From Acidobacteriota bacterium (lineage in GTDB: Bacteria > Acidobacteriota > UBA6911 > RPQK01 > JAJDTT01), in the NCBI GenBank assembly GCA_965217775.1, contig CBDCJH010000002.1, positions 4,416,001 through 4,480,000 of the forward strand: 64,000 nucleotides of DNA, written 5' to 3'. The notes below the pieces were generated by a model. It saw only the letters and a list, made by a program, of their open reading frames with translations, was not told the DNA's origin and made no database searches. Below, piece after piece: positions 1,702-17,193 of this stretch (position 1 is its first letter; each line of letters begins with the position of its first letter). The position numbers and the translations under genes are program-made.

Positions 1702-1728
1702 GGGGACAGAAATGGTGACTGTCCCCTT
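1702..1728 (+). repeat. GTGACTGTCCCC boundary motif within an inverted repeat (GGGGACAG-N9-CTGTCCCC)
   Basis: ggggacagaaatggtgactgtcccctt. Confidence 0.8.
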
Positions 1729-1749
1729 CTTGCTTCCGTTGTCCCCCTC

Positions 1750-2520
1750 ATGAGCTCCTTTGCTTTCACCAAAACGAGCCACATCCAACCAGTGCCGTCC
1801 CCACCGTTCCCCGTAGTGCGGGTTGGCGAGCAGCCGGTCAACGAGTTCGCGACAGGGATCCGCAGAGGAATCTCGAACGAACGCCTGGACTTCTTCGGGG
1901 GCGGGCGCGAGACCGATCAGGTCGAAGTAGGCGCGGCGAATCAGGGTGGGCCGATCGGCCTCCTGCGCCGGGCGAAACTGCATCTCGTGCAGCTTGGCGA
2001 GGAGGAAACGATCGATGGGCGAGTCTGTCCACGCGGCCTCGTCCGAACTTGCCGCCGAGATCTGAGGCGGGTCGACAGCACGCAGGGGGTGGAAGGCCCA
2101 GTGCCGGCGTCCTGACTCGAGATCCGTTTTCCCGGGTTCAGCGGCCTGCGCATCCCTCGGATACGGCGCGCCGAGGGTCACCCATTGGACGAAATCAGCG
2201 ATGACCGAGTCAGACAGTTTGCCGCCGGGCGGCATTGCCAAGCTGCGATCGGTGTGCTTGAGGGCCTCGATCAGAATGGACTGGTCGGGTCGGCCCGGCA
2301 CGACGGCGGGGCCCCGCGACCCGCCTTGCTCGACACCCTCCCGCGTGTCGAGCTGCAGTTTCCCAAACAGCATTCCCGCGCGGTCGGCCTCCGCCGAATG
2401 ACACTGATAGCAGCGCTCCGACAGAACCGGACGGATCTTCTTTTCGAAGAAGTTGATACGGTTCTGCCTGGGTTCCTCGGGGGCTCCGAGCAGGCTGAGG
2501 GAAATTACGAAAAGGATCAC
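1750..2520 (-). pseudogene. Truncated DUF1549 / planctomycete-type cytochrome c domain protein
   Basis: FFEKKIRPVLSERCYQCH heme motif, HWAF, TLIRRAYFDLIGLAP, YGERWGRHWLDVARF. Homology stops just before the motif hairpin at 1702-1728, and the usual long C-terminal part (DUF1553) is missing. Confidence 0.75.
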
Positions 2521-2605
2521 GCGACTACCTTACGCTTGTAATCGGAATTCTACGTTGGGTTGTAGAAGCAAATCCACCAGGCGAACGGACGCGCGCCCTG
2601 GAACC

Positions 2606-3478
2606 TCAGTACGTCCCGATCCCCAGCACATCCTTCTCCCAGGGCGTCAGTCGTTTGATCTGTTCGGGAGAAAGGGCGCGAACCTCCGTGTACTCGGGGA
2701 TGGTCTCCTCGAGGCCGAGCAGCTTCCGCATTTCCGGGAGGAGGCGATCCTGCACACCCTGTGGAATGACGCGGGCGTTGTCGATCATCCCCTTGACCCA
2801 CCATCGCTGGAAAAAGGCCAGTAAGGAATGCCGGACGTGGTCGCTGCGGTTGATGCCGCTGGCGTGCCAAAGCGCCGCATCCCAAACGATGGCCGTACCC
2901 GCGGGAACGACCGCTTGGTGGGATCCCGGGGAGTCGGCATCCGGGTCGGGGATCTCACAGGACTTGTGAGTGCCGGGCCAAACCAGGGTAGCTCCGTTCT
3001 CGGCGGTGAAATCCACAACCGCCCAGGCGACGTTGATCGCCATCGGGTAGTGCTTGCCGCCCTCGAAAGGCACGATGCTGAATGGAGACCGGTCGGCGTG
3101 AATCTGAAACCCGCGCCCGGGTTCCCTGCCCTCGCTGGGTCGAATCGAACGCGCCGTTGCGTCGTATAGAACCATGTCTTCGCCCAGGTACTCACGGCAC
3201 ACGGAGAGAACCGGCGGGTTCAGGTAGAAGGTTTCGAAGCAAGGATGCTTGCCCACGATGCAGTGGGCGGACCAGCAGTGCTCGGACGAAGTTCCCAGGC
3301 GCAGAGCGATCTCGCTCTCCCGCTGGTAGACGTCTTCGGCCGCCTCAATGGCTGGAGCCAGATACTCGGCGTCGAGAGCGTCCGGGATGATGGTGTAACC
3401 CTGATCCCCAAGCTCTCCAACGTGGAAATCCAGTTCCGAAGGCGTCAGCTCTCTTCCGCTCGCGAAGCCGGTCTTCAT
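2606..3478 (-). CDS. Phytanoyl-CoA dioxygenase (PhyH) family Fe(II)/2OG oxygenase
   Basis: HAD and later WH iron ligands; DFTAENGATLVWPGTH motif. Confidence 0.85.
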   Translation of the reverse strand: MKTGFASGRELTPSELDFHVGELGDQGYTIIPDALDAEYLAPAIEAAEDVYQRESEIALRLGTSSEHCWSAHCIVGKHPCFETFYLNPPVLSVCREYLGEDMVLYDATARSIRPSEGREPGRGFQIHADRSPFSIVPFEGGKHYPMAINVAWAVVDFTAENGATLVWPGTHKSCEIPDPDADSPGSHQAVVPAGTAIVWDAALWHASGINRSDHVRHSLLAFFQRWWVKGMIDNARVIPQGVQDRLLPEMRKLLGLEETIPEYTEVRALSPEQIKRLTPWEKDVLGIGTY

Positions 3479-3506
3479 GAGTCATGCCCCAAATATCGTT
3501 GCCGAA

Positions 3507-3577
3507 ATTGCCATTGCTTGGCAGCCTTTACAATTGTCAACCAGCGTACTACACGATTTCTTTCGCGAAAACACTCA
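3507..3577. repeat. 71-bp duplication X, copy 1
   Basis: Matches 4464-4534 with 8 mismatches counted by eye; immediately followed by the boundary motif at 3583. Confidence 0.9.
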
Positions 3578-3582
3578 AAGGA

Positions 3583-3677
3583 GGTGACTGCCCCCTTCCC
3601 GGTTCGCGCCCCTGTGGAGATGGTGCCTGCTCCCTCGCGCGCGCGCGCCCGCACACAAAAAATCAGGGACAGTCAAC
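3583..3677. repeat. Boundary motif cluster (3583-3597 +, variant near 3622, 3666-3677 -)
   Basis: ggtgactgccccctt; ggtgcctgctccc; gggacagtcaac. Confidence 0.75.
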
Positions 3678-3728
3678 TTCTCGCTTGACCACTTGACAAC
3701 TTCCGCGTCGTGGATTCACATTATACAC

Positions 3729-3974
3729 ATGAAGCGCACAAATCTTGTGCTTGATGAGCGAATTCTGGAAGAAACCTTACGTCTCAGCGGCGAGCGTACT
3801 TACTCGAAAGCAGTGACACGAGCGATGACAGAATTCGTTCGTAGGGTAAAGGCAGGTCGCATTTTGCAACTGGCCGGTTCGGGCCTTTGGGAGGGGGACT
3901 TGGCCGAGATGCGCAACGACCGACTGTGCAGCCAACCCGAGCCTGAGCACGGGACCGGCCGTGTACCTCGTTGA
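3729..3974 (+). CDS. vapB: VapB-type antitoxin (DUF2191-like)
   Basis: MKRTNLVLDERILEE...WEGDLAEMR; overlaps the PIN toxin gene. Confidence 0.85.
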   Translation: MKRTNLVLDERILEETLRLSGERTYSKAVTRAMTEFVRRVKAGRILQLAGSGLWEGDLAEMRNDRLCSQPEPEHGTGRVPR

Positions 3975-4359
3975 CACCTCGGTCTGGATCGAGGTGTTTG
4001 CACGGCCCGCCCGAGTCCACCTCGAATCGGTAGCCCACCTGGACGAAGTCGTCACCTGTCTTCCGGTCATGCAGGAGGTGCTCCAAGGCTTCCGCGACGA
4101 GAGCGCGTTCCGGATTGCACGAGAGGCAATGCACGCGTTTCCGCTCGTCGAGGCACCGTTGGAGACGGCAGTGTTCGACGAGGCGGTCGACCTGTACCGC
4201 TTGGCGCGTCGTATCGGTATCACAGTGCGTTCAAGTGTCGACTGCCTGATCGCGGTCTGCGCGATCAGGAACGACTTGACTCTGTTACACCACGACCGCG
4301 ACTTCGACCGGATCGCCCGAATTTCACCGTTACGTTCACGGAGTCTGGGAAGACGTTGA
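3961..4359 (+). CDS. vapC: VapC PIN-domain toxin
   Basis: LVDTSVWI, EVLQG, VDCLIA, HHDRDF. Confidence 0.9.
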   Translation: MYLVDTSVWIEVFARPARVHLESVAHLDEVVTCLPVMQEVLQGFRDESAFRIAREAMHAFPLVEAPLETAVFDEAVDLYRLARRIGITVRSSVDCLIAVCAIRNDLTLLHHDRDFDRIARISPLRSRSLGRR

Positions 4360-4463
4360 TGTCGACGTGCTACGACTGATGCTGAGCAGCAGCGTGACTC
4401 CGAGTCCCGGTGTCGATTCCATGAGGCCGGCCAGCGTTGGGAACGCGCTCGGACGATCGTGAG

Positions 4464-4534
4464 ATTGCCATTGCTTGGCAGCGTTTACAGTTGCCGACTA
4501 GCCTACTACACGACTTCCTTCGCGAAAACACTCA
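4464..4534. repeat. 71-bp duplication X, copy 2
   Basis: Diverged copy of 3507-3577. Confidence 0.9.
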
Positions 4535-4776
4535 GAAAAGCTCCTCCACCGGCCCGATCCGGCATACGCCTAGTAGAAACACGCAGGAGTGACAGGAGGG
4601 GGGACATTCCTGTCCCCCATTGGAGGGGCGTCTTTCAGGCGCCCTCTTTCGGACCAACCATGACTCATGGCCAGGGACTGCAGGTTGCGAAAGCGGGGGT
4701 AGGAAAACCCCCGCTCCTGGACCACCCCTGTTTCTCCCAGGATCTCGCCGGCGGGTGGCCGGTGGGGGAGCTTTCC
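4535..4776. mobile_element. Non-autonomous REP-containing element with terminal inverted repeats
   Basis: AAAGCTCCTCCACCGGCC ... GGCCGGTGGGGGAGCTTT (17/18 inverted repeat) with internal hairpins; the left end recurs at 37334. Confidence 0.55.
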
Positions 4777-4797
4777 TCTTTCTTCGTTTTCTTAGAA

Positions 4798-4812
4798 GGT
4801 GACTGTCCCCTC
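4798..4812 (+). repeat. GTGACTGTCCCC boundary motif
   Basis: ggtgactgtcccctc. Confidence 0.8.
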
Positions 4813-4877
4813 TCGAGCGGGTGACCCACCAGATCCGCGCTCATGTCCGGTGACGTCCGCCAGCACGGTCGGCCTTT

Positions 4878-5753
4878 TCACGGACCGGTCCGCCGCGATC
4901 GCGGGAGCGCCAGCGCCACGCCGCCAAGAATCAGCACGGAGGAGAGCACGAGCCGAAAGGTGACGGACTCTCCCATGACGAGCACGCCGCCCGCCGCGGC
5001 GATCACGGGTACGGACAGCTGCACTGTGGCCGCGAAGGTCGCGGTGAGGCCGCCCAGCGCCGTGTACCAGATCACATAGCCGGCCCCCGACGCCAGCGCG
5101 CCGGAGGTGACGGCGAGTAGCGCGCCGGCAGGCGTCATCTCGAAGTTTCCCACGCTCAGCAGGCTGACCACCGCGACCATCGGCACGCTACGAACGAAGT
5201 TATCGCGGGTTTCTCCCAGCGGGTCCACGGCACCTCGGCCGTGAAGCGAGTACAGCCCCCAGGCGATTCCGGCCACCGCCATGAGCACGCTGCCTGTGGG
5301 AGACGGCGCCGTCACGCCCGGCAGCACCAGATACGTCATGCCGCCGAGCGCGGCGGCCAGGCCGATCCACTGCAGCAGGCGAGGTCGCTCACCGGCGGCC
5401 AGGCCCGCGACGAGCATCGTCGCCTGCACCGCGGCGAAGAGGATCAGCGCGCCTGTTCCGGTCGTGAGCGTGTTGTAAGCGAAGGAGAACGGGACCGCGT
5501 AAAGGAAAAGGAGCGCCGCGGAGGACCAGCCCGCCCTGCGCGGCGTGCGCGCTCCCCGACGCACGGCGTGGATGGACGAGAGGGCCAGCGCTCCCGACAA
5601 CAGACGAATCGCGGAGAAGCTGGCCGCGTCGATCTCCCCGCCCCCGAGCGCCGCGCGGCACAGGACCGAGTTGGCGGCGAAGGCGACCATCGCCGCCGCC
5701 GTCAGGAGGCCGACGCACCTCAACCGCGCCATGGCGTCAGACGTGGCCACCAT
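4878..5753 (-). CDS. DMT/EamA family transporter
   Basis: About 10 hydrophobic segments; AFAANSVLCRAAL, GYVIWYTAL, QLSVPVIAA. Confidence 0.85.
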   Translation of the reverse strand: MVATSDAMARLRCVGLLTAAAMVAFAANSVLCRAALGGGEIDAASFSAIRLLSGALALSSIHAVRRGARTPRRAGWSSAALLFLYAVPFSFAYNTLTTGTGALILFAAVQATMLVAGLAAGERPRLLQWIGLAAALGGMTYLVLPGVTAPSPTGSVLMAVAGIAWGLYSLHGRGAVDPLGETRDNFVRSVPMVAVVSLLSVGNFEMTPAGALLAVTSGALASGAGYVIWYTALGGLTATFAATVQLSVPVIAAAGGVLVMGESVTFRLVLSSVLILGGVALALPRSRRTGP

Positions 5754-6238
5754 CGACCCACGTGCAGCAAATAGGTCTCGTATGACCGCCCGAATCTTCG
5801 GCGGAGTGTCGGCTCCTCATAGAACAGCACGTTCAGGTGGAACGCGACCAGCACCACCCCTGCGTACGCGAACAGCAGGGCGTGGCCAAAGAGTAGCGCC
5901 TGCCCTGCGATGATGATCAGAACGGAGACGTACATCGAGTTTCGCACGAACCGATAGAGGCCGGACGCCACCAGTACTTCGGTCTGCGCCACCGGTGCCG
6001 GTGTGCCACGCCCTTCAAGGGCGAAGCGGGCGAAGCAGTCCAGCAGGCAGGCCAAGCCCGCCGCGACTGCCGCGACACCCAATACCCGCTCGCGCTCGCC
6101 CGGAAGCCCGAGCAGCGGTGGCTGCATCGTCCAACCGAACAGCGCGAATGGGCCGACGCCGGCAACGACCGCGGGAGCGACCCAGAAGAAGACAAACGAC
6201 CCCAAGATCGCACACGTGCGTGTGCCCTTCATAAACAC
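5720..6238 (-). CDS. Isoprenylcysteine carboxyl methyltransferase / PEMT family membrane protein
   Basis: GRGTPAP, GLYRFVRNSMY, YEEPTLRRRFG..Y..Y...V.RW. Confidence 0.85.
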   Translation of the reverse strand: MFMKGTRTCAILGSFVFFWVAPAVVAGVGPFALFGWTMQPPLLGLPGERERVLGVAAVAAGLACLLDCFARFALEGRGTPAPVAQTEVLVASGLYRFVRNSMYVSVLIIIAGQALLFGHALLFAYAGVVLVAFHLNVLFYEEPTLRRRFGRSYETYLLHVGRWWPRLTPWRG

Positions 6239-6423
6239 GTCATGAGACCGTGGGAGCCTGGCAGGTGAGGTCCAAGCGGCTCCGCGACTGTTGTCGTGCG
6301 CCGTCTGCGTGACTTTGCATGTGGTCTCATCCCCCGTTCAGCATACTGGAACTCCGCGCCGATTCTTATAATTTATGGCTTGGTCGTAGTGTTCTCAACG
6401 GGAGAGACGGTGGCTGTCCCCTT
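6238..6423. repeat. ~186-bp duplication Y, copy 1, ending in the boundary motif (6409-6423)
   Basis: Colinear with 7437-7625; contains a minus-strand TTGAGA-N17-TAAATT promoter-like sequence. Confidence 0.9.
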
Positions 6424-6519
6424 CTCGCTTGGATGATTGTGACGGCAAGAGTCGCATGACCGAACGACGCTCCACTCGCAATACACAGAATGCTGGTCAA
6501 CTGGCTAGTCCCCTTACCC

Positions 6520-7227
6520 TTAGGCAGCCTCCCTGGTTCCCACGATCAACAGAGTCCGTATAGGCAACAGGAAGTCTTCCCCCTTCCTCCTGATGTTCAA
6601 GGCCTCCAGGAATGATCCCGGGGCCTTCTGCAGACGAGCTCGGATCTCCGCTTCCGCCTCAGATCCAGAGGATCCGATCTCGCACCACCGGCGTACAGTC
6701 GTCCCCTGAGGTCGCTCCGATAGTCCATCCTTCAACGCTTCCACCTTCAGCCCGCTGCTCTCGAATATGGATCTCCACCTCGCGGCCGTGTAGCTCCGAA
6801 CGTGGGTTGGATCGTGAAGCAGCTCCAGCTTGTGGTTGAACTCGTCTATGTCAGCGTTTTCGTGTCCTTCGAGATCGATAATCGCTACCCGCCCGCCGAT
6901 CTTCGTGAGCCGAGCCATTTCCGCCACCGCGCGGTCCACATCATCGAAATGGTGGGGGGCCAGCCGCGATACGACCAAATCGAACTGGTGTCCCCGCAGG
7001 GGAATCGATTCCGCGTACGCCTCGACCGTCTCCACCTCTCTCCCCTGCTCCGCTGCCAATCGCCGAAACGCGTCCAACATGCTGGGTGCAGGGTCGACTC
7101 CTACGAGTCTCCCGGCACCAGGGGCAAAGGACAGCGCCAAGTGGCCGGCGCCACACGCGACATCACATACGGATGCCCCAGCCGCTAGATTCAAGAGCTG
7201 ATGAAGAAGCCTGATCGTTGGGCTCAT
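6520..7227 (-). CDS. Class I SAM-dependent methyltransferase
   Basis: VCDVACGAGH motif I; FDLVVSRLAPHHF, DPTHVR. The homologous frame extends upstream to 7299 without a start codon. Confidence 0.85.
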   Translation of the reverse strand: MSPTIRLLHQLLNLAAGASVCDVACGAGHLALSFAPGAGRLVGVDPAPSMLDAFRRLAAEQGREVETVEAYAESIPLRGHQFDLVVSRLAPHHFDDVDRAVAEMARLTKIGGRVAIIDLEGHENADIDEFNHKLELLHDPTHVRSYTAARWRSIFESSGLKVEALKDGLSERPQGTTVRRWCEIGSSGSEAEAEIRARLQKAPGSFLEALNIRRKGEDFLLPIRTLLIVGTREAA

Positions 7228-7393
7228 GGAGTGAACTTCGCTCGTGGCATAGTTCTCAGCAATTCTCTCGAAGCGGTCACGCGATTCGTCAGTCGATTCT
7301 CACCCTCCTTCTGGAACCTCCGATCTCGACCTGGCGGTCCATCAGGGCTGAGGCCACTCGTCTTGAGAAGACTCCTATGTTCTCTCAAGTGAC

Positions 7394-7436
7394 GGTGACT
7401 GTCCCCTTCTAGATTTCCGTCCCCTTCTAGATTTCC
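7394..7436 (+). repeat. Boundary motif plus perfect 18-bp tandem duplication
   Basis: ggtgact followed by gtccccttctagatttcc twice (7401-7418, 7419-7436). Confidence 0.9.
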
Positions 7437-7625
7437 CGTCATGAGATCCTGGGAGTCCGGCAAGTGATGTCCAAGCGGCATCGCGCCTGTTGTCGTGCGC
7501 CGTCTGCGTGACTTTGCATGTGGTCTCGTCTCCCGTTCAGCATACTGGAACTCGCGCTGATTCTTGTAATCTATGGCTTAGTGATCGTGTGTTCTCAACG
7601 CGAGAGAGACGGTGACTGTCCCGTT
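7437..7625. repeat. ~189-bp duplication Y, copy 2, ending in the boundary motif (7611-7625)
   Basis: Diverged copy of 6238-6423. Confidence 0.9.
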
Positions 7626-7690
7626 CCCGATTCCGATTCCAAATTGACTCGCAATCTCGAAGGGTGTAGGGCTATTCATTAACTTCAGAT

Positions 7691-8674
7691 ATGAAAAACA
7701 TCATTTTTCTGCTGATTTCTGCATTGACTATATTTTTGGCTCGGACGGCCTGGAGTGAGGGGGCCGGGTTCGGGAAGCCTGACCGGGAAGGTATCGGGCG
7801 CTTCCTCCTGGTCGCGTCGGAAGGGCTCTACATCGTCGAATCCGATGGCCACTGTTCCTGGTCGTACACCGTCCCTCCGCTCGACGGACAATCCCCCGGA
7901 GAGTTCGACGACCTGATTTATGACGGCTGGGCACTCGCTAACGGAAACGTTCTCTTTGGGACGCATCGCTATGTACGAGAGATAGACCGCCAAAAGCAGC
8001 CGGTGTGGGAGTACCGTGTCCAAGGAAAGAACAAGGTCAAAACCTGCCTGCCCCTACCGAACGGTCGTGTGGCGGTACTCAATAGCCAGGAGCAGGCCAT
8101 TCTCGAATTGGAATCGGGGACCGGACAGGTCCTGCACAGGATCCCCGTTCCCGCTGGCGGAACACTCCATACCCGCTACAACCTCCTTCGCCGAACGCCG
8201 GAGGGAAACTACCTGGTTGCGCTACGTGCCGAGGAGAGATTCGTGGAAGTGGATTCCACCGGTCAGATCCTCCGCTCCCTGCGTGTCCCGAGTCTGCCCG
8301 CCCTGGCCCAGACGCTGAGCGACGGCACGACGCTATGCAGCGGCCGCTTCGGCCTGATCCGGTTTGATGCGAATGGAAAGAAAGTGTGGAGCTTCAGCCC
8401 TGAGAATGCTGCTCCCCACTTCCCACTGTTGATCGCAGTCGGGACGGTGGAGCTTTCCGACGGACGATTGCTGGTCGTGAACTCCGACTGGCACTACCGG
8501 GAACCGGGCGAAAATCGCGTGCAGCTCTTCATCACGGATTCCTCGAAGAACATTTCGTGGACGCTTCCGGTGACCGCCTTCGAAGGCTGGAAGCGGGGAG
8601 AGATCGAGCCCGAGACGGGTCTGCTGGAACATCGAGGCGGAGTGGTTCAACTGCTGGGCCCTGAGATTCCGTAA
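7691..8674 (+). CDS. Secreted beta-propeller repeat protein
   Basis: N-terminal signal peptide; repeated LxNGNxL / VWxY / EVDxxG beta-strand motifs. Confidence 0.7.
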   Translation: MKNIIFLLISALTIFLARTAWSEGAGFGKPDREGIGRFLLVASEGLYIVESDGHCSWSYTVPPLDGQSPGEFDDLIYDGWALANGNVLFGTHRYVREIDRQKQPVWEYRVQGKNKVKTCLPLPNGRVAVLNSQEQAILELESGTGQVLHRIPVPAGGTLHTRYNLLRRTPEGNYLVALRAEERFVEVDSTGQILRSLRVPSLPALAQTLSDGTTLCSGRFGLIRFDANGKKVWSFSPENAAPHFPLLIAVGTVELSDGRLLVVNSDWHYREPGENRVQLFITDSSKNISWTLPVTAFEGWKRGEIEPETGLLEHRGGVVQLLGPEIP

Positions 8675-8698
8675 TCGTAATTGCGGGTCTTCGTACTG

Positions 8699-8740
8699 TG
8701 GAACGGACCGCGGGAGAAGATGACTGTTCCCTTTTCGACT
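8699..8740 (+). repeat. ~41-bp site, copy 1 (TGGAACGGACC...TGACTG..CCCTTTTCGA)
   Basis: Also at 9773-9813 and 10082-10123. Confidence 0.9.
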
Positions 8741-8786
8741 TTCTGCGAATTGTTCCAGTTGTTCCCTGATAAACTGACTAAGTTTT

Positions 8787-9176
8787 ATGTCGGTAGAGAT
8801 ACAGATTCCTGAAGATAGCCTAACTGGCTTTAGCGTACAGGCCCGGAAGCTCTTGAAGGAAGCGACGGCCGAGTACGCCACTGATCTAATCGACGAGACC
8901 AATAGAATCGAAGCAGGTCGCAACTCAACGAGTGGACCGCCAGAGGTCACGCGCGGAATGGTTGATGATGCAAGAGTCCTGTTGCGCCGGGGACTAGGTG
9001 CACCAAGGAGAGGCTGGAGATCTAAGGTGCTGCGCGTAGTAGCAGCAGTGCTATCACTGAGCGTCGGGGTCTTGTATCCCAAGGATGAATTGCAGGATAG
9101 TGCGTATCTTCTGGTTTTCATCCTTCTAGTAGCAGCTGCGATATTGGCTGTAACTATATCGACACTCAGGGAGTAG
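8787..9176 (+). CDS. Histone-fold-like protein with two C-terminal TM helices
   Basis: FSVQARKLLKEATAEYATDLIDETNRIE...EVTRGMVDDA resembles histone alpha2-L2-alpha3; two hydrophobic C-terminal segments. Confidence 0.55.
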   Translation: MSVEIQIPEDSLTGFSVQARKLLKEATAEYATDLIDETNRIEAGRNSTSGPPEVTRGMVDDARVLLRRGLGAPRRGWRSKVLRVVAAVLSLSVGVLYPKDELQDSAYLLVFILLVAAAILAVTISTLRE

Positions 9177-9181
9177 AAGGA

Positions 9182-9754
9182 ATGGACCGTCGAGAATATT
9201 CGGATACGCTCTACGAGCTAGGGAAACGACGACGCTCTCGCCGTAGAATCAACCTTATCTTAAGGACATATACATCGTTCGGACTATTATTGTCTATTGT
9301 CGCTGGTGGCTTTTTCTTGTTGACACTGTTGCCTTTCGACCTTTCCAATCAACAGCAGTGGTCTCTGATGGCAGCAGGAGTTGGGGTGCTACTTTCGTTG
9401 ATGTCAAGATTCCTCATTACCTTCTACAAGGAACGAGAGGCAGAAACGCTAGAGCGTATAACAGAATATGAGAGACTTGGCCACTTTCTGTCCGCATGGG
9501 CGGAATTCGAACGTGTTAGCAGGAAGATGCTGGCTGACCAAGGCGTCGATCGCAAGGTGCACTCTCTTCGTTCTATTATCTCGTTTCTATATAGGATGGA
9601 GAAGATTGATCGAGAAGATGTTTTTGTTCTTGAAGAAGGGTTAAAGATCCGCAATTCGATTGTCCACGGTGAGCGTCTGACATCGGCAAGAGTCACGGAA
9701 CGGCTGACGAACTTTCTGGGCGAGGTCATAAGGAAAATCGAGGTAGTAGCATAG
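9182..9754 (+). CDS. 2TM + HEPN-like protein
   Basis: Two N-terminal TM segments, an FLSAWAEFE helix and RNSIVH (RxxxxH); starts 5 nt after the previous stop. Confidence 0.65.
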   Translation: MDRREYSDTLYELGKRRRSRRRINLILRTYTSFGLLLSIVAGGFFLLTLLPFDLSNQQQWSLMAAGVGVLLSLMSRFLITFYKEREAETLERITEYERLGHFLSAWAEFERVSRKMLADQGVDRKVHSLRSIISFLYRMEKIDREDVFVLEEGLKIRNSIVHGERLTSARVTERLTNFLGEVIRKIEVVA

Positions 9755-9772
9755 TAGCGAATCTCCTTCCAA

Positions 9773-9813
9773 TGGAACGGACCTCGCGAAAACGTGACTG
9801 TCCCCTTTTCGAT
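9773..9813 (+). repeat. ~41-bp site, copy 2
   Basis: tggaacggacctcgcgaaaacgtgactgtccccttttcgat. Confidence 0.9.
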
Positions 9814-9821
9814 CGTTCGTG

Positions 9822-10057
9822 CGGGAATCGTGGAGCTGTCCGGCGGCCGATTGCTGGTCGTGAACTCCGACTGGCACTACCAAGAACCGGGCGAGAATCG
9901 TGTGCAGCTCTTCATCACGGATGCCTCGAAGAACATTTCGTGGACTCTTCCGGTGACCGCCTTCGACGGCTGGAAGCGGGGAGAGATCGAGCCCAAGACG
10001 GGGCTGCTGGAACATCGAGCCGGAGTGGTCCAGTTGCTGGACCCAGACATTCCCTGA
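9822..10057 (+). pseudogene. Orphan 3' fragment of a beta-propeller gene homologous to 8440-8674
   Basis: VELSGGRLLVVNSDWHYQEPGENRVQLFIT... is near-identical in protein to the end of 7691-8674, with many synonymous changes. Confidence 0.85.
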
Positions 10058-10081
10058 CCGTATTCACGGGGCTTAGTACAC

Positions 10082-10123
10082 TGGAACGGACCTCGCGAGA
10101 ACGTGACTGCCCCCTTTTCGACT
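10082..10123 (+). repeat. ~41-bp site, copy 3
   Basis: tggaacggacctcgcgagaacgtgactgcccccttttcgact. Confidence 0.9.
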
Positions 10124-10180
10124 GCCCGGACGAAAGGGCCTGTGGCTTGTGATTTCTGGTTGAAGTTTCAGATCACAGCT

Positions 10181-11302
10181 TTACCGCGGCTGCAGTTCCA
10201 CGCGCCAGAGTTCGAGACACTCACCCGACTGGTAGAGAATCACGTTGGGCTCGACTTCGAATATCGTGGGATACGCCATTCTCGGAGCATAGTCGGCAAC
10301 CGTGGTGGCGAGCCAGCCCTTTCCGGTTCCATCGGCATTGATTGCCAGTTGGCATTTCCTTCTCTGATCTTCGTGTCTCCAGTCCGACTTTTTCTCCCTG
10401 CTGCGCTGAACCAACTGGCCATAGGCTAACGCCAATCGCCCGTCCCTCAGTCTCAGCAGATAGGGGTCCACCCCGGGGCCCAGGACCATGTCGGCGGGTG
10501 GGCTCCAGGTTCTTCCGCCGTCGCCGCTCCAGCTCGCCACCATGGGCGAGTAGTGTCCGGTCCGCATTACGGCCAACATCCGGCCATCGTCCAGCGGAAG
10601 CAACGCCCACTCGTTGAATCCTTCCGAATCAACCATCACCCCGGCCTGCGGGGCGGCTACGGTGGAATAGTATCGCCAGGTGTCTCCCTGATCGTCGGAG
10701 CTCACCAGGAAAGACCTCATCTTGAAGGGGGTCTCCATCTTGCTGCGAGGGTCGGTTGTCGGCAGATTGTCTTCCTCGAAGCTGCCAATCATGCAAGCCA
10801 GCAGGGTCCCATCGAGCATCTCTCGAATGCCCCGATGGAAAAAGATGGTCGAGCTGTTCTGGTCCCGGACTTCGGAGAAGTTATCGATGGGAACGGATCC
10901 CGCCTCCGGAATGATGAGGACGGTTTCTTTCTTCTCAACGGTCTTGAACCCGTCGCGGGAACGCCACATTCTCCCCACGCAGCGGCCCGCCTCGCGGCAG
11001 GTCACGTTCCAATAGAAGCCGACGAACAGTCCCTTTCTCCAGTAGAGGGAGGTCAGCTTCTCGGCGAACAGGTAAGAACCAAACGGCGGATCGGACTCAT
11101 CCACCGGCCAAAAATACCTGCCCCCATCGTTACTCTTGAGCGCCCCATAGACATAGATGGTTCCATCCGGAGCCTCGACCGCCCTGGGATGACGGCATCT
11201 TGCTGCCGTCACCTGAACGTCCAACTCTGCCGCCGCCTGAGTCATGGCCGAGGCCATGGTGACGAATGCCAACAAATGGAATCCTCTATGAACATGCATC
11301 AC
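10181..11302 (-). CDS. Secreted sialidase-like / BNR (Asp-box) repeat protein
   Basis: Signal peptide; Asp boxes SRDGFKT, SDDQGDTW, SGDGGRTW. Confidence 0.8.
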   Translation of the reverse strand: MMHVHRGFHLLAFVTMASAMTQAAAELDVQVTAARCRHPRAVEAPDGTIYVYGALKSNDGGRYFWPVDESDPPFGSYLFAEKLTSLYWRKGLFVGFYWNVTCREAGRCVGRMWRSRDGFKTVEKKETVLIIPEAGSVPIDNFSEVRDQNSSTIFFHRGIREMLDGTLLACMIGSFEEDNLPTTDPRSKMETPFKMRSFLVSSDDQGDTWRYYSTVAAPQAGVMVDSEGFNEWALLPLDDGRMLAVMRTGHYSPMVASWSGDGGRTWSPPADMVLGPGVDPYLLRLRDGRLALAYGQLVQRSREKKSDWRHEDQRRKCQLAINADGTGKGWLATTVADYAPRMAYPTIFEVEPNVILYQSGECLELWRVELQPR

Positions 11303-11349
11303 TTCAATTACCTCCTAACCGGGAAAAACTGGAAAAACACTCCTTCGCC

Positions 11350-11440
11350 GGAGCGGCGGTTTTTCAGTCGCCGACTTTCCTTCTGGCTCCGTCGTGCTCC
11401 GGTTTGGACCGAAGAGGGCACCCACAAGGGGTGCCCCTAC
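11350..11440. repeat. REP-like palindromes (family B 11350-11374; GTAG family A 11414-11440)
   Basis: ggagcggcggtttttcagtcgccga; gagggcacccacaaggggtgcccctac. Confidence 0.8.
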
Positions 11441-11516
11441 CGACTGTTCTCTATCAATGTGCACAAGAATTCGAGATTAACCCGGATTATCCATAAGCGC
11501 CCGGGGGGCGAGAGAA

Positions 11517-11531
11517 GGTGGCTGTCCTCTT
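11517..11531 (+). repeat. Boundary motif variant
   Basis: ggtggctgtcctctt. Confidence 0.65.
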
Positions 11532-11638
11532 CTCATCAGAACGATTGCCAGTCACCTGCCGGTCATGCTCGAAAAGCCCGTTGGAGTTCAGTATTTTGGC
11601 ATTCGTCAGCGGCTCAGTCATTTTTGCGGGAGGTTAGG

Positions 11639-11839
11639 ATGAAGAAGTGGGAGTACAAAGTTCTTGACTCGAAGGATGTCCCTCGTGCGGGAATCCTCAA
11701 GGGCAGGGACCGATCAGGCGTCGAAAAGTATCTCAACAGCCTTGGCAGAAAAGGCTGGGACCTGGTCAATATTGACTTCCGGGAATTGGAGGGCCGCTTC
11801 GAGTTCACGGCCGTGGCCAAGCGAGAGAAAACCTGGTAA
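11639..11839 (+). CDS. DUF4177 domain protein
   Basis: MKKWEYKVL...LNSLGRKGWDLV; GGAGG ribosome-binding site upstream. Confidence 0.8.
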   Translation: MKKWEYKVLDSKDVPRAGILKGRDRSGVEKYLNSLGRKGWDLVNIDFRELEGRFEFTAVAKREKTW

Positions 11840-11893
11840 CCATGGACTAAGCCTGAATGAGCTTGCGCGGGTGAGAACGAGGGCGGGTGAAAA

Positions 11894-11908
11894 CGTGAGT
11901 GTCCCCTT
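11894..11908 (+). repeat. Boundary motif variant
   Basis: cgtgagtgtcccctt. Confidence 0.7.
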
Positions 11909-12046
11909 CCAGGCCGTCTTCCCGTCGCTCACTGCATCGCTTGGCGTACTTGCGTTCCCGTCGTGATGCGGCACATCGGCTGTGGAACGACCTGCCTCTC
12001 CAGCAGTGCAGGCGGCCATAATCTCCGGAACTGCCACTGCGGCGCG

Positions 12047-14427
12047 ATGTGGCACAGGAGGATCATCCTGTTACGACCGAAGTTCCTGGTGGTGGGATCG
12101 GTTTTCCTGTTGTCGAGTTTTGTGCGGCAGGCGCCTGCCGGCCAGACGGACGTCACCGGTGTGGTCGATCCGGCTCTCATCGATGGTCCGGCTGCTCCCG
12201 TTCCGCCGGCGGTGATGACCCGCAACGGGCAGGGTCAGGCGACGGTTCGGGCGGTGAGGCTGGATGAGAGTATCGACTTCGACGGAGTGCTGGACGAGGC
12301 CATCTACGGGACTGTTCCCGCCATCAGCGGTTTCATTCAACTGACGCCGGATGTGGGAGCGGCGGCGACCGAGCGGACTGAGGCGTGGATCCTGTTCGAC
12401 GAGACGAACGTCTACGTCTCGGCGCGGCTCTGGGACTCGGCGCCCGAGAGCCAGTGGGTGGCCAACGAGATGCGCCGCGACACCACCCAGCTCCGTCAGA
12501 ACGACACGTTCGCCGTGCTGTTCGATACGTTTTACGACCGCCGCAACGGAGTCCTCTTCTACACGAATCCACTCGGAGCCCGCGCAGACGCGCAGTTCAC
12601 GAACGAGGGCAATCCGAACTCGGACTGGAACCCGGTCTGGGACGTGCGTACCGGCCGTTTCGACGGCGGCTGGACGGTGGAGATGGAGATCCCGTTCAAG
12701 ACCCTGCGCTACCGCTCGGAGCCGCCTCATATCTGGGGCATTCAGCTCCGCCGCGCCATCCGGCGCAAGAACGAATGGGCCTATCTGACGCGGTTGCCCG
12801 TCGCGTCCGGATCGGCGGCGGTGCTCGCGGGATCTTCCGCGTCTCGCAAGCCGGCTCGCTGGTTGGCATTGAGCCTCCATCGGCGGGCCGCAACCTCGAG
12901 CTCAAGCCATATGCCATCGGCGGCTTGACCACGGACATGGCGGCGACCCCGGTGAAGATCAACGAGGGTAGCGCCGACGGCGGCATCGACATCAAGTACG
13001 GCATCACGCAGAACCTGACCGCGGACTTCACCTGGAACACCGACTTCGCCCAGGTCGAGGTGGACGAGCGGCAGGTGAACCTGACCCGCTTCCCGCTGTT
13101 CTTTCCGGAGAAGCGGGAGTTCTTTCTCGAAGGGCGGGGCATCTTCGGCTTCGCCACCGGCGGCTTCACGCGCGCCGCCAGTGTGGCCCGTAATCCGGTC
13201 GCCGGGTTCTTCGGCGACGTGAACGTGCCGCAGCTCTTCTACAGCCGGAAGATCGGGCTGGAGGAGGGCCGCGTGGTGCCGATCGTCGGCGGAGCGCGGG
13301 TCACCGGCAAGGTTGGAAGGTTCGATGTCGGGCTGCTGAACATCCATGCCGGCGAGGAGACGGTCTCGGACTCCAAGCCGACCAATTTCTCGGTCGTCCG
13401 CCTCCGGCGCGACATCCTGAGGCGCAGCTCCGTCGGCGCCATGTTCACCAACCGCTCGGTCTCCCGCGTGGCCCCGGGCTCGAGCCAGGCCTACGGCATC
13501 GACGGCACCTTCGCCTTCTTCGAAAACCTCAACCTGACGACCTACATTGCCCGGACCCAGCTTCCCGGTCCCGAGCACCAGGGCAAGGACCTGAGCTACC
13601 AGGGCAAATTCGAGTACGCGGCGGACCGCTACGGATTCCAGGCGGATCACCTCGTGGTGGAAGACAACTTCCTGCCGGAGGTGGGCTTCCTGCGGCGCGA
13701 CAACTTCAGGCGCACCTTCACGTCGGCACGATTCAGCCCCCGGCCGCAGTCGATCAAGAGCGTCCGGCAGTTCACCCTGGAGGGCAGCATCGATTACATC
13801 CAGACGGCCGACGAGAATCACCTGGAGACGCGCCAGAACATCGTGGCGTTCGAGACCGAGTTCGAGTCCAGCGACCGGCTGACTCTGACGGCGACCGACA
13901 GCTACGAGTTGCTGATCCAGCCGTTCGTTCCTCCCGGTTCCGAATTCTCGATCCCGGCGGGAGGCTACAGCTTCGCCGACGTTCACGTCGCGTACTCCAT
14001 GGCACAGCAACGCCGCATCAACGGGACGATGGCGGTGAGACGGGGCGCCTACTTCGGCGGGGACCTGACGACGTTGGAACTCACGCAGGGCCGCATCGCG
14101 GTGCTGCCGCAGATGTCGGTGGAGCCGACGGTCTCGTTCAACTGGATCGACACGCCATACGGGGCGTTCCAGACGAACCTGGCGGTGGCGCGGGTCAACT
14201 ACGCGTTCAACCCCCGCATGTTCTTCAGTGGGCTCATCCAGTACAACTCAGCCAGCAGCTCTTTCAGCAGCAACCTGCGCCTGCGGTGGGAGTACAGCCC
14301 GGGCAGCGAGCTTTTCGTGGTCTACACCGACGACCGCGACGTCACCGGCGGCTTGCGGCCCGACCGGGGCTGGGATCTGCGGAACCGCGGCTTTGTCGTC
14401 AAGTTCAACAAGTTGTTACGGTTCTGA
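12047..14427 (+). pseudogene. CBM9-like + DUF5916 outer-membrane protein, frameshifted near 12800-12815
   Basis: N-terminal half in ORF 11963-12928 (WTVEMEIPFKTLRY); C-terminal half in ORF 12385-14427 (NTDFAQVEVD, FPEKREFFLEG, C-terminal F). Confidence 0.75.
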
Positions 14428-14526
14428 CGTCGACAGCGCCCTGGCTTGACCAGAGTCTCCCCGGAGGAAGGAAAAAAAGAGTGCTGAATCTTCAACGCGC
14501 CAAGAATATAAACTGAGGTTGTCATC

Positions 14527-14607
14527 ATGAAGATCACTCGAATTCGCGCAACTGATTTCATCCAGCAAAGAATGGCCGGCTCGTTCCATCAACCGAGTCC
14601 GTCATGA
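14527..14607 (+). pseudogene. 5' remnant of a mandelate racemase/muconate lactonizing enzyme gene (26-codon ORF)
   Basis: GAGG RBS followed by MKITRIRAT, a typical enolase-superfamily N-terminus; its stop overlaps the Nramp ATG. Confidence 0.5.
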
Positions 14608-16271
14608 ACGCCAAACCATCGTCGCGCAAACAGCACGAAACGAATGACCCGGTCGATCTGTACGCGCGCGATGCGCATACGTTTCGTGAACCACCGCAAG
14701 GCATCCGGATGACGCTACGGCACTTGGGACCCGGACTGATCCTGGTCGGCTCAATCGTCGGTTCCGGCGAGTTGATCATGACGACCAAGCTCGGCGCACA
14801 AGGTGGTTTTGCACTCTTGTGGTTTGTGTTGCTCTCATGCGTCATCAAGACCGTTGTCCAAGCCGAACTGGGACGCCATGTGATTTCCAGCGGCGAGACG
14901 ATTTTGGTGATGTTCAACAAGCTGCCCGGACCACGCGGACGGCGGCCGAGTTGGCTTTGTCTGGAGTGGTTACTGATTGTCGTGGTCAGCACATACCTCG
15001 GCCTGGGCCTCTGGTCGTGGAATCTGGCTGCGGGTATCGGTGCGGGCGGATTGGCCGCGAGCGTGCTGTCCATTTGGATTGTGGCTGCGTTGTTGCTCGC
15101 GATGCGAAGTCGGCAACGCGAGATGGTGCAAGCGTCAGATGCTCAAAGCCGACCGATGTTGGGGTGGTTCCTGTGGCTGTACCTTGCTTGCCAATTGGTC
15201 ATGTTTATCAGCGTCGGCGCGGTGATGGGCGGGGCAGGCCAGGCACTGGCACTGGGCTTTGAAAACGTCCTGGGAACAACCGACGCCAAGCTGTGGACTG
15301 CCGGCATCGCCGTTGTTTGCGGGGCACTGTTGCTCGTGGGTCGTTACAAGATGCTTGAACGAGTATCGCTGGTAATGGTTCTTGTTTTCACATTGATCAC
15401 GATTCTCTGCACGGCGCTGCTTTACTGGACGGACAACGCCATTACGTTCGAGCAAATTCGCCACGGATTACAGTTTTCGTTTCCCGAGTTTCTGGCAATA
15501 GACGTGACGCTGACGATGATCGTGTTAACCGCACTGGGCATGTACGCGGCGACGGGGATCGGCACTTGGGAGATGATGCACTACACGTACTGGTGCGTCG
15601 AGAAAGGCTACGCGCGACACACCGGCGCGAATCAACCTGGCGATCAGTGGACGCAGCGGGCTCGCGGGTGGATACGCGTCATGTATACCGACGTGCTGCT
15701 GACCATGGCCGTGTTCACGATCAGCACCGTTTGTTTTTACTTACTCGGTGCAGCGATTTTGTATCCTGAGCGCGACCCGGCGGGTAAAGAAACACTCGGT
15801 GTACTGCAAAACATTTTCACGGAGTCGCTGGGCCCGTGGGCGGCCACGCTCTTCGTGGTCGGTGGGTTCGTGGTGCTGTTCTCGACGACCTATTCCGGCA
15901 CGGCTGGGAGTTCACGATTGGTGGCCGATGCCCTGTGCGTGATGGGAGTGATTGACGCGCGCGATTACGGAGCACGTCTGCGCTTCACGCGCTTCTACAT
16001 CGTTTTCGGCCTCACGATGGGAACGGTGACGTATTGCTTGCTGCAAAACCCTCCGCTGATGTTGATCATTTCGGGATTTGTGGCAGTCGTGCTATATCCC
16101 GTGTTTGGTCTGGGAACGGTTTATTTGAGGTACCGTGGCGTGGACGAGCGAATCCGTCCCGGATCATTCACCACCTCGTGGCTGTGGATTTGCGGATTGG
16201 CCTTGGCCGTCATCTCACCGGCAGCAGGGTTACTTGTGCTGGCGTTGAATCAAGGCTGGTTTGAGTTTTGA
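14604..16271 (+). CDS. Nramp-family (YcsG-like) transporter
   Basis: LGPGLILVGSIVGSGELI; multiple TM segments. Confidence 0.8.
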   Translation: MNAKPSSRKQHETNDPVDLYARDAHTFREPPQGIRMTLRHLGPGLILVGSIVGSGELIMTTKLGAQGGFALLWFVLLSCVIKTVVQAELGRHVISSGETILVMFNKLPGPRGRRPSWLCLEWLLIVVVSTYLGLGLWSWNLAAGIGAGGLAASVLSIWIVAALLLAMRSRQREMVQASDAQSRPMLGWFLWLYLACQLVMFISVGAVMGGAGQALALGFENVLGTTDAKLWTAGIAVVCGALLLVGRYKMLERVSLVMVLVFTLITILCTALLYWTDNAITFEQIRHGLQFSFPEFLAIDVTLTMIVLTALGMYAATGIGTWEMMHYTYWCVEKGYARHTGANQPGDQWTQRARGWIRVMYTDVLLTMAVFTISTVCFYLLGAAILYPERDPAGKETLGVLQNIFTESLGPWAATLFVVGGFVVLFSTTYSGTAGSSRLVADALCVMGVIDARDYGARLRFTRFYIVFGLTMGTVTYCLLQNPPLMLIISGFVAVVLYPVFGLGTVYLRYRGVDERIRPGSFTTSWLWICGLALAVISPAAGLLVLALNQGWFEF

Positions 16272-16418
16272 TCGGCAGCATGCCGGAGCTCGGAATCGGC
16301 ACCGTAGCGCAAATACACCTGGGGGTCGCCATGCCGAATCTCGATTTCGACAGCGACACGTGCGGGCTCGCTCTACCACCAGAGTGAGGTGATCGCCGCT
16401 CTGCTGCACATTGAGAAG
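16271..16418 (+). pseudogene. 3' remnant of a muconate cycloisomerase-like gene
   Basis: IGSMPELGIGTVAQIHLGVAMPNLDFDSDTCG, then after a frameshift YHQSEVIAALLHIEK; ends at the boundary motif. Confidence 0.65.
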
Positions 16419-16422
16419 AAAA

Positions 16423-16437
16423 ACCGACTGTCCCCTA
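16423..16437 (+). repeat. Boundary motif variant
   Basis: accgactgtccccta. Confidence 0.7.
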
Positions 16438-16472
16438 CTCCGGCAGTCCAGCCGCCCGCACCGCGTTGGCGA

Positions 16473-17163: not shown

Positions 17164-17167
17164 GCTT

Positions 17168-17188: not shown

Positions 17189-17193
17189 CACAC

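Follow-up and report, generated by a model that had tools for sequence, protein, structure and literature searches.

Can a row of unrelated gene blocks, separated by copies of one short motif that point in the same direction and holding no integrase gene, be the product of a dedicated gene-capture system? The question is raised by a locus in the genome of an Acidobacteriota bacterium (G000; 6.43 Mb in two contigs, C1 and C2), of which a stretch of 64,000 nucleotides (C2:4416001-4480000), referred to as the window, has been analysed. An initial annotation of these letters had proposed an integron-like cassette array, in which a site-directed system acting in trans captures DNA segments from related strains. 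In the present analysis the motif has been identified as the terminal repeat of a Y1 (HUH) transposase family of the TIRYT/TIRtron type, its copies have been found clustered with common polarity at the same tmRNA locus in seven species, and alignments of these loci indicate that blocks have been reassorted between species at the motif and that duplicated segments are alleles from different lineages.

Motif copies in the window and in the genome

The 14-mer GTGACTGTCCCCTT occurs 11 times in the window at up to two mismatches, always on the + strand and within 1715-11908 (Table 1), whereas 0.57 matches are expected by chance (standard deviation 0.76, maximum 3) and none of 100 shuffled sequences attains 11. 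The copies listed in the initial annotation have been recovered with starts shifted by one base (1715, not 1714), as have their single orientation (11/11) and the motif-free remainder of ~45 kb, where the same search gives zero matches. A twelfth copy, placed at 16423, is a degenerate one that starts at 16424; the inverted copies reported at 1702 and near 3666 exist as an exact and a degenerate one with four mismatches, and the weak copies near 6501 and 18435 exist as well, though near noise level.

The motif extends to a genomic family. G000 contains 108 copies at up to one mismatch (59 forward, 49 reverse) as opposed to 1 for the reversed control, and 225 as opposed to 31 at up to two mismatches; for the core ACTGTCCCC, 195 copies compare with 20 for the control. 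From these 195 copies the consensus GAGAAR-GTGACTGTCCCC-TTCTC has been derived, so that the purine-rich 5' and pyrimidine-rich 3' flanks described for the window hold genome-wide. The distribution is non-uniform: as the initial annotation had anticipated, copies are grouped in clusters, mostly of one orientation each (Table 1). The largest cluster is that of the window, with 29 copies (26 on the + strand) over 46 kb (C2:4381720-4427895), and ends at the tmRNA gene; the array accordingly starts 34 kb before the window.

The possibility that the motif is a cis-element of the host (a protein-binding site, an insulator or terminator, or an RNA element) kept for regulation would agree with its intergenic position and with the conservation of the core across the genus. 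Against this, the copies lie on one strand regardless of the direction of the neighbouring genes, they occur in variable regions only and the remaining 45 kb of the window has none, no T-run follows them, and an Rfam scan of window positions 1-20000 at E<=1 returns the tmRNA as its sole real match and nothing on the motif. Together with the tie to a multicopy transposase gene and the sister genus without the motif, both described below, these observations leave a regulatory element very improbable.

A Y1 transposase with the motif at both ends

Inverted pairs of copies ~1.4 kb apart (TAGAC-, CAGAC- and GAGACTGTCCC- variants) have been found to enclose an open reading frame (ORF) of 316 amino acids, present in G000 as 11 full-length copies (86-100% identity) and two fragments. 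The core GACTGTCCCC flanks all 11 full-length genes in inverted, outward-pointing orientation, with GACTGTCCC(C/T) on both sides. The protein matches PF01797 (Y1_Tnp) with 30.9 bits (cut-off 23) and, over nearly its full length, the REP-associated tyrosine transposase model NF047646 with 48.1 bits, short of that model's equivalog cut-off (80). Its sequence contains NHFHFV, an HUH motif, and YVELNAVRAGL, a tyrosine motif. A PDB sequence search with this protein has given no meaningful match. Two further Y1 genes in G000 (C2:5635223-5635945 and C2:4665591-4666268) lie more than 600 nt from any motif copy.

Y1 genes with terminal inverted repeats sharing GGGGWSAS have been named TIRYT genes, located in 'TIRtrons', and solo repeats of the latter are described as moderately abundant families, many in dimers or clusters (PMC3733652); the consensus has also been given as GGGG[AT][CG]A[CG], with most TIRYT equated with subclass 2.1 (Quentin et al. 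2018, PMC6006769). The other strand of the core reads GGGGACAG and fits this published repeat, and the GGGG(A/T)CAG-type motif of Y1 genes that the initial annotation had cited is the same GGGGWSAS repeat of TIRYT genes (PMC3733652, PMC6006769). All members of subclass 2.1 are said to carry a C-terminal helix-turn-helix (HTH) domain (Quentin et al. 2018, PMC6006769). Because Pfam at E<=10 gives Y1_Tnp alone, with no C-terminal HTH domain (Bac_DnaA_C, HTH_23 or HTH_28), membership in this subclass is not established for the 316-residue protein; a diverged HTH domain in its C-terminus is possible.

The Y1 gene flanked by the motif, for which the initial annotation had suggested a search, exists accordingly in 11 copies, all of them outside the array of the window, and an enzyme of this family would therefore act there in trans. 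At C2:1808097-1822782 a Y1 gene on the + strand is followed, from 4.6 kb downstream, by six + copies over 9 kb; this array starts by the enzyme gene and is oriented as that gene's 3' repeat.

Position is one line of evidence that links repeat and enzyme, and co-occurrence across genomes is the other. In a survey of 41 genomes of the order, in which the motif has been counted as the 14-mer at up to one mismatch, at least 30 copies are present in 10 genomes, namely nine of the genus (G000-G008; 30-108 copies) and one of another family (G023; 60 copies). The remaining 31 genomes, G016 among them, have at most 11 copies, control counts are 0-5, and the sister genus shows no enrichment. A Y1 homologue of at least 71% identity is encoded in exactly the same 10 genomes, while the best homologue elsewhere reaches 59%. 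In G023 both Y1 genes (78% identity) directly adjoin motif arrays, and the 3' flank there is the GTGAC variant. These arrays (G023:C1:1459209-1460736 and 1487649-1489805) are dense, head-to-tail and made of non-coding units of 15-200 nt, forming mosaics of few short modules; no cassettes common to G000 and G023 have been found at the DNA level. Among the matches listed for a public genome collection, the records with many copies are labelled as metagenome-assembled genomes (MAGs) of Acidobacteriota, and one Planctomycetota MAG contig holds four copies within ~420 nt.

A polar array at one locus in seven species

All eight relatives of the genus keep the flank formed by the tmRNA gene and CoaE, with identities of 84-91%. 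From six of these (G001-G006), 40 kb of the array side have been compared, and each holds a motif array oriented in the same way with respect to the tmRNA gene (Table 1). On the far side, conserved esterase-like, sulfatase and TPR/AhpC genes precede the array and are collinear in G003, G005 and G006; with the conserved tmRNA gene at the other end, the array is thus a bounded variable region of ~30-50 kb.

A nearby tRNA gene is not a general property of such arrays. Of the 11 arrays with at least four copies, three have a tRNA or tmRNA gene at a distance of up to 6.2 kb and eight are not near a tRNA gene, for which reason anchoring at tRNA genes has been rejected as a rule. The array on C1 (144 kb) is 909 nt from a tRNA-Phe gene, that at C2:5168915-5175039 is 895 nt from another tRNA-Phe gene, and their flanks look similar; it is possible that C1 represents a strain variant or second haplotype, the contamination figure of G000 being 7.47%.

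Reassortment of blocks at the motif

When G000 is aligned with its relatives, BLAST blocks start and stop at motif copies. Window positions 1734-3604 form a single block in five relatives; its left end falls 19-24 nt beyond the first base of copy 1715, and its right end is 1-8 nt away from the end of copy 3584. In G001 the block order is EamA/PEMT, then VapBC, then the propeller gene; in G005, VapBC and the methyltransferase are absent at this position of the locus, and a methyltransferase copy of 87% identity lies elsewhere in its array. Window positions 8744-9796 are unmatched in all six arrays of the relatives, as is a 5.7-kb block at C2:4412047-4417714, found in G000 only and bounded by the motif on both sides. 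In eight motif-bearing intergenic intervals, 44 of 66 block ends have been found within 25 nt of a copy, with 19.4 expected if the ends were evenly spread. In a second array (C2:2110347-2124649) the left ends of blocks are offset by 21-25 nt from the preceding copies, the right ends fall within copies, and the order of the blocks is scrambled in G006. The breakpoints between strains that the initial annotation had predicted at the motif are thus found there across seven species.

These block ends bear on another explanation, in which the island has been built in a different way, e.g., by unrelated integrative elements at the tmRNA gene, and the motif is a small mobile unit inserted later into intergenic purine-rich sites; block ends and motif would then coincide because both favour intergenic DNA. 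At the joint between the DUF5916 and Nramp genes a motif copy is present in G004 and none in G000 while both flanks are conserved, from which it follows that the motif can be gained or lost on its own; this is the one clean case in a search for empty sites, most 'empty' sites being mutated copies. The 5' purine run could likewise reflect a target preference, since it is different in G023, and the three arrays close to tRNA or tmRNA genes would also fit. On the other hand, the 2.3-fold concentration of block ends within 25 nt of a copy is found even inside motif-bearing intergenic intervals, truncated genes and duplicates begin 6-42 nt past a copy, the array contains neither an integrase gene nor tmRNA-derived direct repeats, and eight of 11 arrays are away from tRNA genes. 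Later insertion into a finished island is therefore regarded as improbable.

The flanks of individual copies give a finer view. For 114 copies, flanks of 150 nt have been compared, omitting the motif and 8 nt on each side and accepting scores of at least 35 (largest null score 12). A common flank has been found for 214 pairs of copies, of which 41 share both sides (about a dozen of these being overlapping neighbours within one genome), 100 the left side only and 73 the right side only, i.e., 173 one-sided pairs. In an ungapped comparison anchored on the motif, left-shared homology stops at +10 to +24 and right-shared homology begins at -12 to +3; as the test by construction confines the switch to ~34 nt, it shows only that the exchange is not placeable outside the conserved core. 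Leapfrogging of flanks has been considered genome-wide: left flanks are homologous in 6 of 70 pairs two steps apart and in 2/81, 1/54 and 0/38 otherwise, numbers too small for a rule.

No RNA data set is listed among the public sequencing runs that contain the sequence. Four of these runs consist of metagenome contigs, which break at repeats; the low depth in bins 1-1268 and 8877-9510 of some runs proves nothing, as uncovered parts are uninformative. Three joints that contain inserted letters reach the edge of a motif copy (X5 1730→16582, X5 14443→1708 and X7 4811→11552); mapped at 90% likeness and possibly derived from other organisms, they have been counted for neither side.

Irregular joints, truncated genes and allelic duplicates

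On the side that follows a copy, many joints are irregular, and the motif often adjoins sequence that lacks a copy of its own. The PSCyt/DUF1549 ORF at 1447-2520 covers only positions 1-92 of the 209 of PF07583: its homology to a full copy stops 6 nt after the motif copy at 1715, within the gene, and the full gene has a mere GTTGTCCCCC look-alike 9 nt further on. At the DUF5916-Nramp joint the copies in G004, in G005 and in G002/G003 each adjoin a different point of the Nramp block, three points in all. Joints flush in both members make up 45 of 98 left-shared pairs versus 15 of 61 right-shared pairs. Truncation at the motif, which the initial annotation had claimed for two genes, holds for DUF1549; no Pfam family of muconate cycloisomerase has been found, and the gene so named was probably the segment 9830-10123, a 3'-end fragment of the propeller gene (7691-8674) that has a copy of the motif on either side.

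Orphan right halves of the motif (GTCCCC...) lie up to 51 nt 3' of a full site in 23 of 195 cases, compared with 8 upstream and ~4.5 expected. In seven of the 23 the next ten bases repeat those after the full site (at least 8/10), as a tandem duplicate that starts at the G. Orphan halves and tandem duplicates hint at a fixed break near ACT^G and at another just 3' of TTCTC.

The three duplications X, Y and Z at the motif and a fourth of a DUF4177 piece, all noticed in the initial annotation, are present with the coordinates of Table 1; duplication X begins 6 nt beyond the copy 1715-1728 and runs into the copy at 3584, where it ends. All of X, Y and Z, and more loosely the DUF4177 duplication, take the form S-motif-insert-motif-S'-motif, in which S' is a copy of the end of the block preceding the previous motif copy, and one further case has been found in G005. 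The two members have different nearest relatives: Z' is 93-94% identical to G002/G003/G006 while Z is 86-89%, Y' is 93.7% identical to G005 while Y is 85.4%, and X' is slightly closer than X to G002/G003. S and S' are accordingly alleles that stem from different lineages and have come to lie next to each other, and neither is a recent copy of the other. Homologous recombination seems to take part in the building of the array.

In the most serious rival explanation, the copies are passive leftovers of terminal repeats, and host homologous or short-homology recombination or slippage on direct repeats of 23-30 bp reassorts the blocks with no dedicated enzyme, ordinary homologous recombination with DNA of related strains being included. 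It is in line with an exchange point that is no finer than the conserved core, as any recombination between identical repeats would give, with S/S' duplicates that require homologous recombination under any model, with a similarity of blocks between species no higher than that of core genes, and with degenerate copies that stay in place. Exchange from repeat to repeat leaves unexplained, however, the joints of the 3' edge to repeat-free sequence (the interior of PSCyt and three Nramp points), and the strict head-to-tail polarity over 46 kb and in seven species, together with the outward copies at the Y1 genes, suggests a strand-specific process. A repeat this short is also near the lower limit for RecA-dependent exchange. 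On balance, purely passive repeats appear rather unlikely, though they are the alternative to be taken most seriously.

A possible mechanism

The most likely of the readings considered, at about even odds, is one in which a Y1 enzyme supplied in trans cleaves a single strand at the motif and reconnects the ends between co-oriented copies. Modelled on the single-strand circles of IS200/IS605 and on read-through capture as in IS91/ISCR/Helitron elements, it would proceed as follows. The enzyme, encoded elsewhere in 11 copies, would cut one DNA strand at or just beside GACTGTCCCCTT(C/T)TC, and the cut ends would be rejoined between two co-oriented copies. A segment bounded by two copies would leave as a circle and enter at any other copy with the polarity of the array being kept, so that clean events would move a block plus one copy. 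Since only head-to-tail copies would be productive partners, polarity would perpetuate itself. If the second cut were missed, a circle with an arbitrary far end and some neighbouring sequence would arise, and such events would leave one end fixed and the other variable, produce gene fragments and give rise to the S/S' pattern. In the latter case a circle [S*-motif-insert-motif], with a closing joint between the 3' side of the motif and an arbitrary upstream point, would enter a related array via homologous recombination in S. The trans-acting capture from related strains proposed at the outset is thus partly supported: those of its predictions that could be checked agree with the data, and motif-bounded reassortment, a Y1 family encoded in trans and allelic duplicates stand, while the role of the enzyme in catalysis, its cut sites and the circles are what we infer from them.

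A number of observations weigh against this mechanism. No circle or excision product has been seen, and a repeat of 23-30 bp could by itself support host-mediated recombination. The copies that flank Y1 genes in G000 are TAGAC, CAGAC and GAGAC variants in inverted arrangement, whereas the arrays carry the GTGAC variant head-to-tail. The consensus arms GAGAAGG and CCTTCTC are mutually complementary, but the fraction of Watson-Crick pairing (0.46-0.67 in the best register, 0.40-0.52 expected) supports a hairpin weakly and the left arm is replaced by AAATGAT in G023; a hairpin model has for these reasons not been relied on. The cumulative GC skew is lowest at 5.0 Mb and highest at 1.68 Mb; array orientation does not track the replication arms so defined, both orientations being present in either arm. 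The orientation of IS608 and ISDra2, by contrast, follows replication, and in single-strand transposition of the IS200/IS605 type it is tied to the lagging-strand template. Many joints are not flush with the motif, and the counts of copy pairs and block ends are non-independent, the species being kin. Finally, block identity between species (79-98%) resembles that of adjoining core genes (82-94%), so that much of the array may be vertically inherited; showing no clear excess over core genes, these values have not been taken to claim recent horizontal transfer of cassettes.

Still more tentatively, and with some leaning to the contrary, the family might be viewed as a RAYT-like Y1/HUH gene-capture platform, which cuts and rejoins one strand at a site of 17-25 nt, excises, inserts and sometimes over-reads DNA segments, and thereby forms polar cassette arrays at fixed hot spots of the chromosome, in this case the tmRNA gene, that are exchanged between species.

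Genes between the copies

A Pfam scan of 48 ORFs in window positions 1-20736 has placed genes between the + copies on both strands, and a copy is present in every gap between blocks from 1.7 to 12 kb (Table 1). Toxin-antitoxin, transporter and methyltransferase blocks have been recovered as the unrelated contents that had been described. The methyltransferase cassette has a copy at C2:411342-412218 (90.65% identity), 4 Mb away, which adjoins a Y1 gene and lies between motif copies; the spacers differ between the two. The block found in G000 only carries AIR-synthase-like, N6/N4 DNA methylase and HD-domain genes and unknown ORFs (C2:4412122-4415943, continuing into window 1-1700).

Table 1. Motif copies, clusters, arrays, genes and duplications (window positions unless a contig is given)
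Feature	Position	Strand	Remarks
Motif copy	1715..1728	+	0 mismatches; right edge of 5.7-kb G000-only block
Motif copy	3584..3597	+	1 mismatch
Motif copy	4799..4812	+	1 mismatch
Motif copy	6410..6423	+	1 mismatch
Motif copy	7395..7436	+	0 mismatches, then tandem duplicate of right half + 10 nt (GTCCCCTTCTAGATTTCC x2)
Motif copy	7612..7625	+	within duplication Y
Motif copy	8720..8733	+	2 mismatches
Motif copy	9794..9807	+	0 mismatches
Motif copy	10103..10116	+	within duplication Z
Motif copy	11518..11531	+	2 mismatches
Motif copy	11895..11908	+	1 mismatch
Degenerate motif copy CCGACTGTCCCCTA	16424..16437	+	3 mismatches; core ACTGTCCCC intact
Inverted half-copy CTGTCCCC	1702..1709	-	exact; abuts first full copy
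Degenerate inverted copy TTGACTGTCCCTGA	3663..3676	-	4 mismatches; preceded by GAGAAG arm
Weak copy ATGACTGTCCCGGC	18436		4 mismatches; near noise level
Half-site TAGTCCCCTT	near 6501		near noise level
Motif cluster	C2:2110347-2124649	+	12/12 copies +
Motif cluster	C2:4071818-4083276	-	7/7 copies -
Motif cluster	C1:122733-128587	-	7/7 copies -
Array of G005			copies + 21 / - 0
Array of G002			copies + 13 / - 1
Array of G006			copies + 16 / - 4
Array of G003			copies + 14 / - 2
Array of G004			copies + 9 / - 0
Array of G001			copies + 16 / - 2
Truncated PSCyt/DUF1549 ORF	1447-2520	-	Pfam PF07583
PhyH gene	2606-3478	-	Pfam
VapB-PIN toxin-antitoxin cassette	3693..4359	+	absent here in G005; after EamA/PEMT in G001
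EamA transporter + PEMT-like methyltransferase cassette	4878..6238	-	Pfam
SAM-methyltransferase cassette	6520..7227	-	missing from this position in G005
Beta-propeller protein gene	7691..8674	+	Pfam
Cassette of two ORFs (8787-9176, 9182-9754)	8734..9793	+	no Pfam family
BNR-repeat protein cassette	10181..11302	-	Pfam
DUF4177 piece	11690-11782	+	Pfam
CBM9/DUF5916 and Nramp genes	11963..16271	+	Pfam; no motif between them in G000
BrnA(CopG)/BrnT toxin-antitoxin pair + IS110-family transposase remnant	16614..17664	-	Pfam
tmRNA gene	18023..18378	-	Rfam; 3' end toward array; right-hand border, followed by CoaE
Duplication X (truncated PSCyt/DUF1549 + PhyH)	1734-3598 = C2:4410181-4412046		95.4% identity
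Duplication Y	7437-7632, copy of 6238-6430		86.4% identity
Duplication Z	9830-10123, copy of 8447-8740		88.1% identity
DUF4177 piece duplication	11690-11782 = 16488-16580		86.0% identity

The array contains no integrase gene, as had been stated: PF00589 (tyrosine recombinase) has 26 matches in the genome and zero between C2:4143504 and C2:5845918. IS110 has been considered as the enzyme and rejected, since 17 Transposase_20 matches occur in the genome and only the remnant of the window (C2:4433212-4433457) is near an array. This remnant (17193-17727) is 89% identical to C2:323069-323608, and in one open frame (16861-17664, - strand) a BrnT toxin domain is fused to the C-terminal portion of such a transposase of the IS110 family.

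Co-oriented sites ~0.2-1.9 kb apart, toxin-antitoxin cassettes and the lack of an integrase would also be found in a true integron remnant, i.e., a cluster of attC sites lacking integrase (CALIN), as a CALIN needs no integrase. attC sites are, however, ~57-141 nt long with paired R''/L'' and L'/R' boxes, whereas the conserved site here spans 23-30 nt and shows no GTTRRRY R''/R' boxes by eye. Cassette genes run in both directions, and the site belongs to a Y1 transposase family, which leaves an integron remnant with virtually no probability. The analogy to integrons drawn in the initial annotation is a loose one: the co-oriented sites and the missing integrase agree with it, while the two-way genes, the irregular right joints and the apparent homologous recombination do not.

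Further features of the region may be mentioned here. The CBM9/DUF5916 gene is split over the overlapping frames 11963-12928 and 12385-14427, for which a frameshift or an assembly error is possible. Upstream of the window, inside the array, a DUF6527 / ThiF-DUF6791 gene pair (C2:4399196-4400835) lies beside an HTH/M78-peptidase pair and looks like a defence module. Three other repeats have been noticed: one of ~170 nt at 11312-11480, flanked by the start of the BNR gene and the 11518 motif copy, with ~45 copies in G000 on both strands (71-88%); one of ~117 nt at 19192-19308, between CoaE and the next gene, with well over 100 copies across the genus (79-95%); and one of ~160 nt at 34329-34496, with dozens of copies at 97-100% in G000 and other species of the genus. 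The last is more conserved than adjoining core genes (82-94%) and could be either a highly active miniature element or else a small RNA kept by conservation.

Relation to known systems

REP-like repeats and Y1 enzymes are widespread. In the literature consulted, the roles proposed for such repeats have been structural or regulatory (supercoiling, transcription termination, mRNA stabilisation) and not gene exchange. The closest likeness is to TIRtrons and TIRYT genes, i.e., a Y1/HUH gene with inverted repeats carrying GGGGACAG and solo copies that are moderately abundant and partly clustered, and Acidobacteria (Koribacter versatilis) and Rhodopirellula baltica are named as TIRtron hosts (PMC3733652, PMC6006769). 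In contrast to the dimers and clusters described in these two papers, long head-to-tail arrays separate reassorted gene blocks in G000; the gene is present in 11 copies, and Pfam gives no C-terminal HTH domain, said to be universal in subclass 2.1 (PMC6006769). With REP/BIME-RAYT systems the family shares a short, partly palindromic intergenic repeat, a RAYT-related Y1 enzyme and outward inverted copies around its gene. It differs in a consensus that has no GTAG or CGTC tag, in stem-loop pairing barely above expectation, in a multicopy (11) instead of single-copy Y1 gene, in clustering in variable regions instead of a genome-wide spread, and in head-to-tail copies where inverted doublets (REPIN/BIME) predominate; for REP dimers the head-to-tail arrangement is described as rare or absent (PMC3733652).

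Integrons and CALINs likewise place co-oriented sites between unrelated small blocks, including toxin-antitoxin genes, which are present, absent or reordered among relatives. Here, by contrast, IntI and a common promoter are missing, no attC-type site is recognised by eye, genes run two ways, many right joints are irregular and the candidate enzyme is of the HUH type. In IS91/ISCR/Helitron elements a short site fixes one end while the far end varies, neighbouring genes or gene fragments are captured and the chemistry is of the HUH type; the pattern of one fixed and one variable end has been seen at several joints of the arrays and is also compatible with adjacent deletions. In the present family a small RAYT-like Y1 is encoded elsewhere, many sites are arrayed and no rolling-circle product has been seen. 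The 'peel and paste' transposition of IS200/IS605 also employs a Y1 enzyme and recognises both ends on one strand, which would explain why only co-oriented copies cooperate; the arrays differ in having no replication orientation bias, a poorly supported hairpin and one site per joint instead of a left and a right end.

Short repeats alternating with variable segments are also known from 'minimal mobile elements'. The large intergenic dRS3 mosaics of Neisseria (CGTC-1, PMC3733652) show the same interleaving and are like the arrays of G023 with units of 30-200 nt, but belong to another repeat family, and CGTC repeats are described as lacking a dedicated transposase (PMC3733652). In G000, moreover, whole genes lie between the copies. 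In the literature searched, no paper on Y1/REP-type repeats bordering reshuffled cassettes has been found, and the term 'TIRYT' occurs only in PMC3733652 and PMC6006769 (and a preprint), the element lists of which could hold this family or its arrangement. The pair of repeat and enzyme is of a known kind; what may be new, as it has not been found in the literature searched, is its arrangement in long polar arrays that delimit cassettes, occupy one locus across species and are reassorted at the repeat.

Significance

If the proposed mechanism is true, cassettes would have a third general route of capture, next to integrons and elements of the ISCR/Helitron type. It would be an integron-like system in which HUH chemistry takes the place of a tyrosine recombinase and attC sites. 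The site is short and the enzyme small, and seven natural arrays offer predicted substrates and products. 'Domesticated' Y1 transposases would thereby acquire a clear genomic function, and the hot spots of accessory genes in these Acidobacteriota genomes, with their toxin-antitoxin pairs, methyltransferases, transporters and a defence-like block, would be accounted for.

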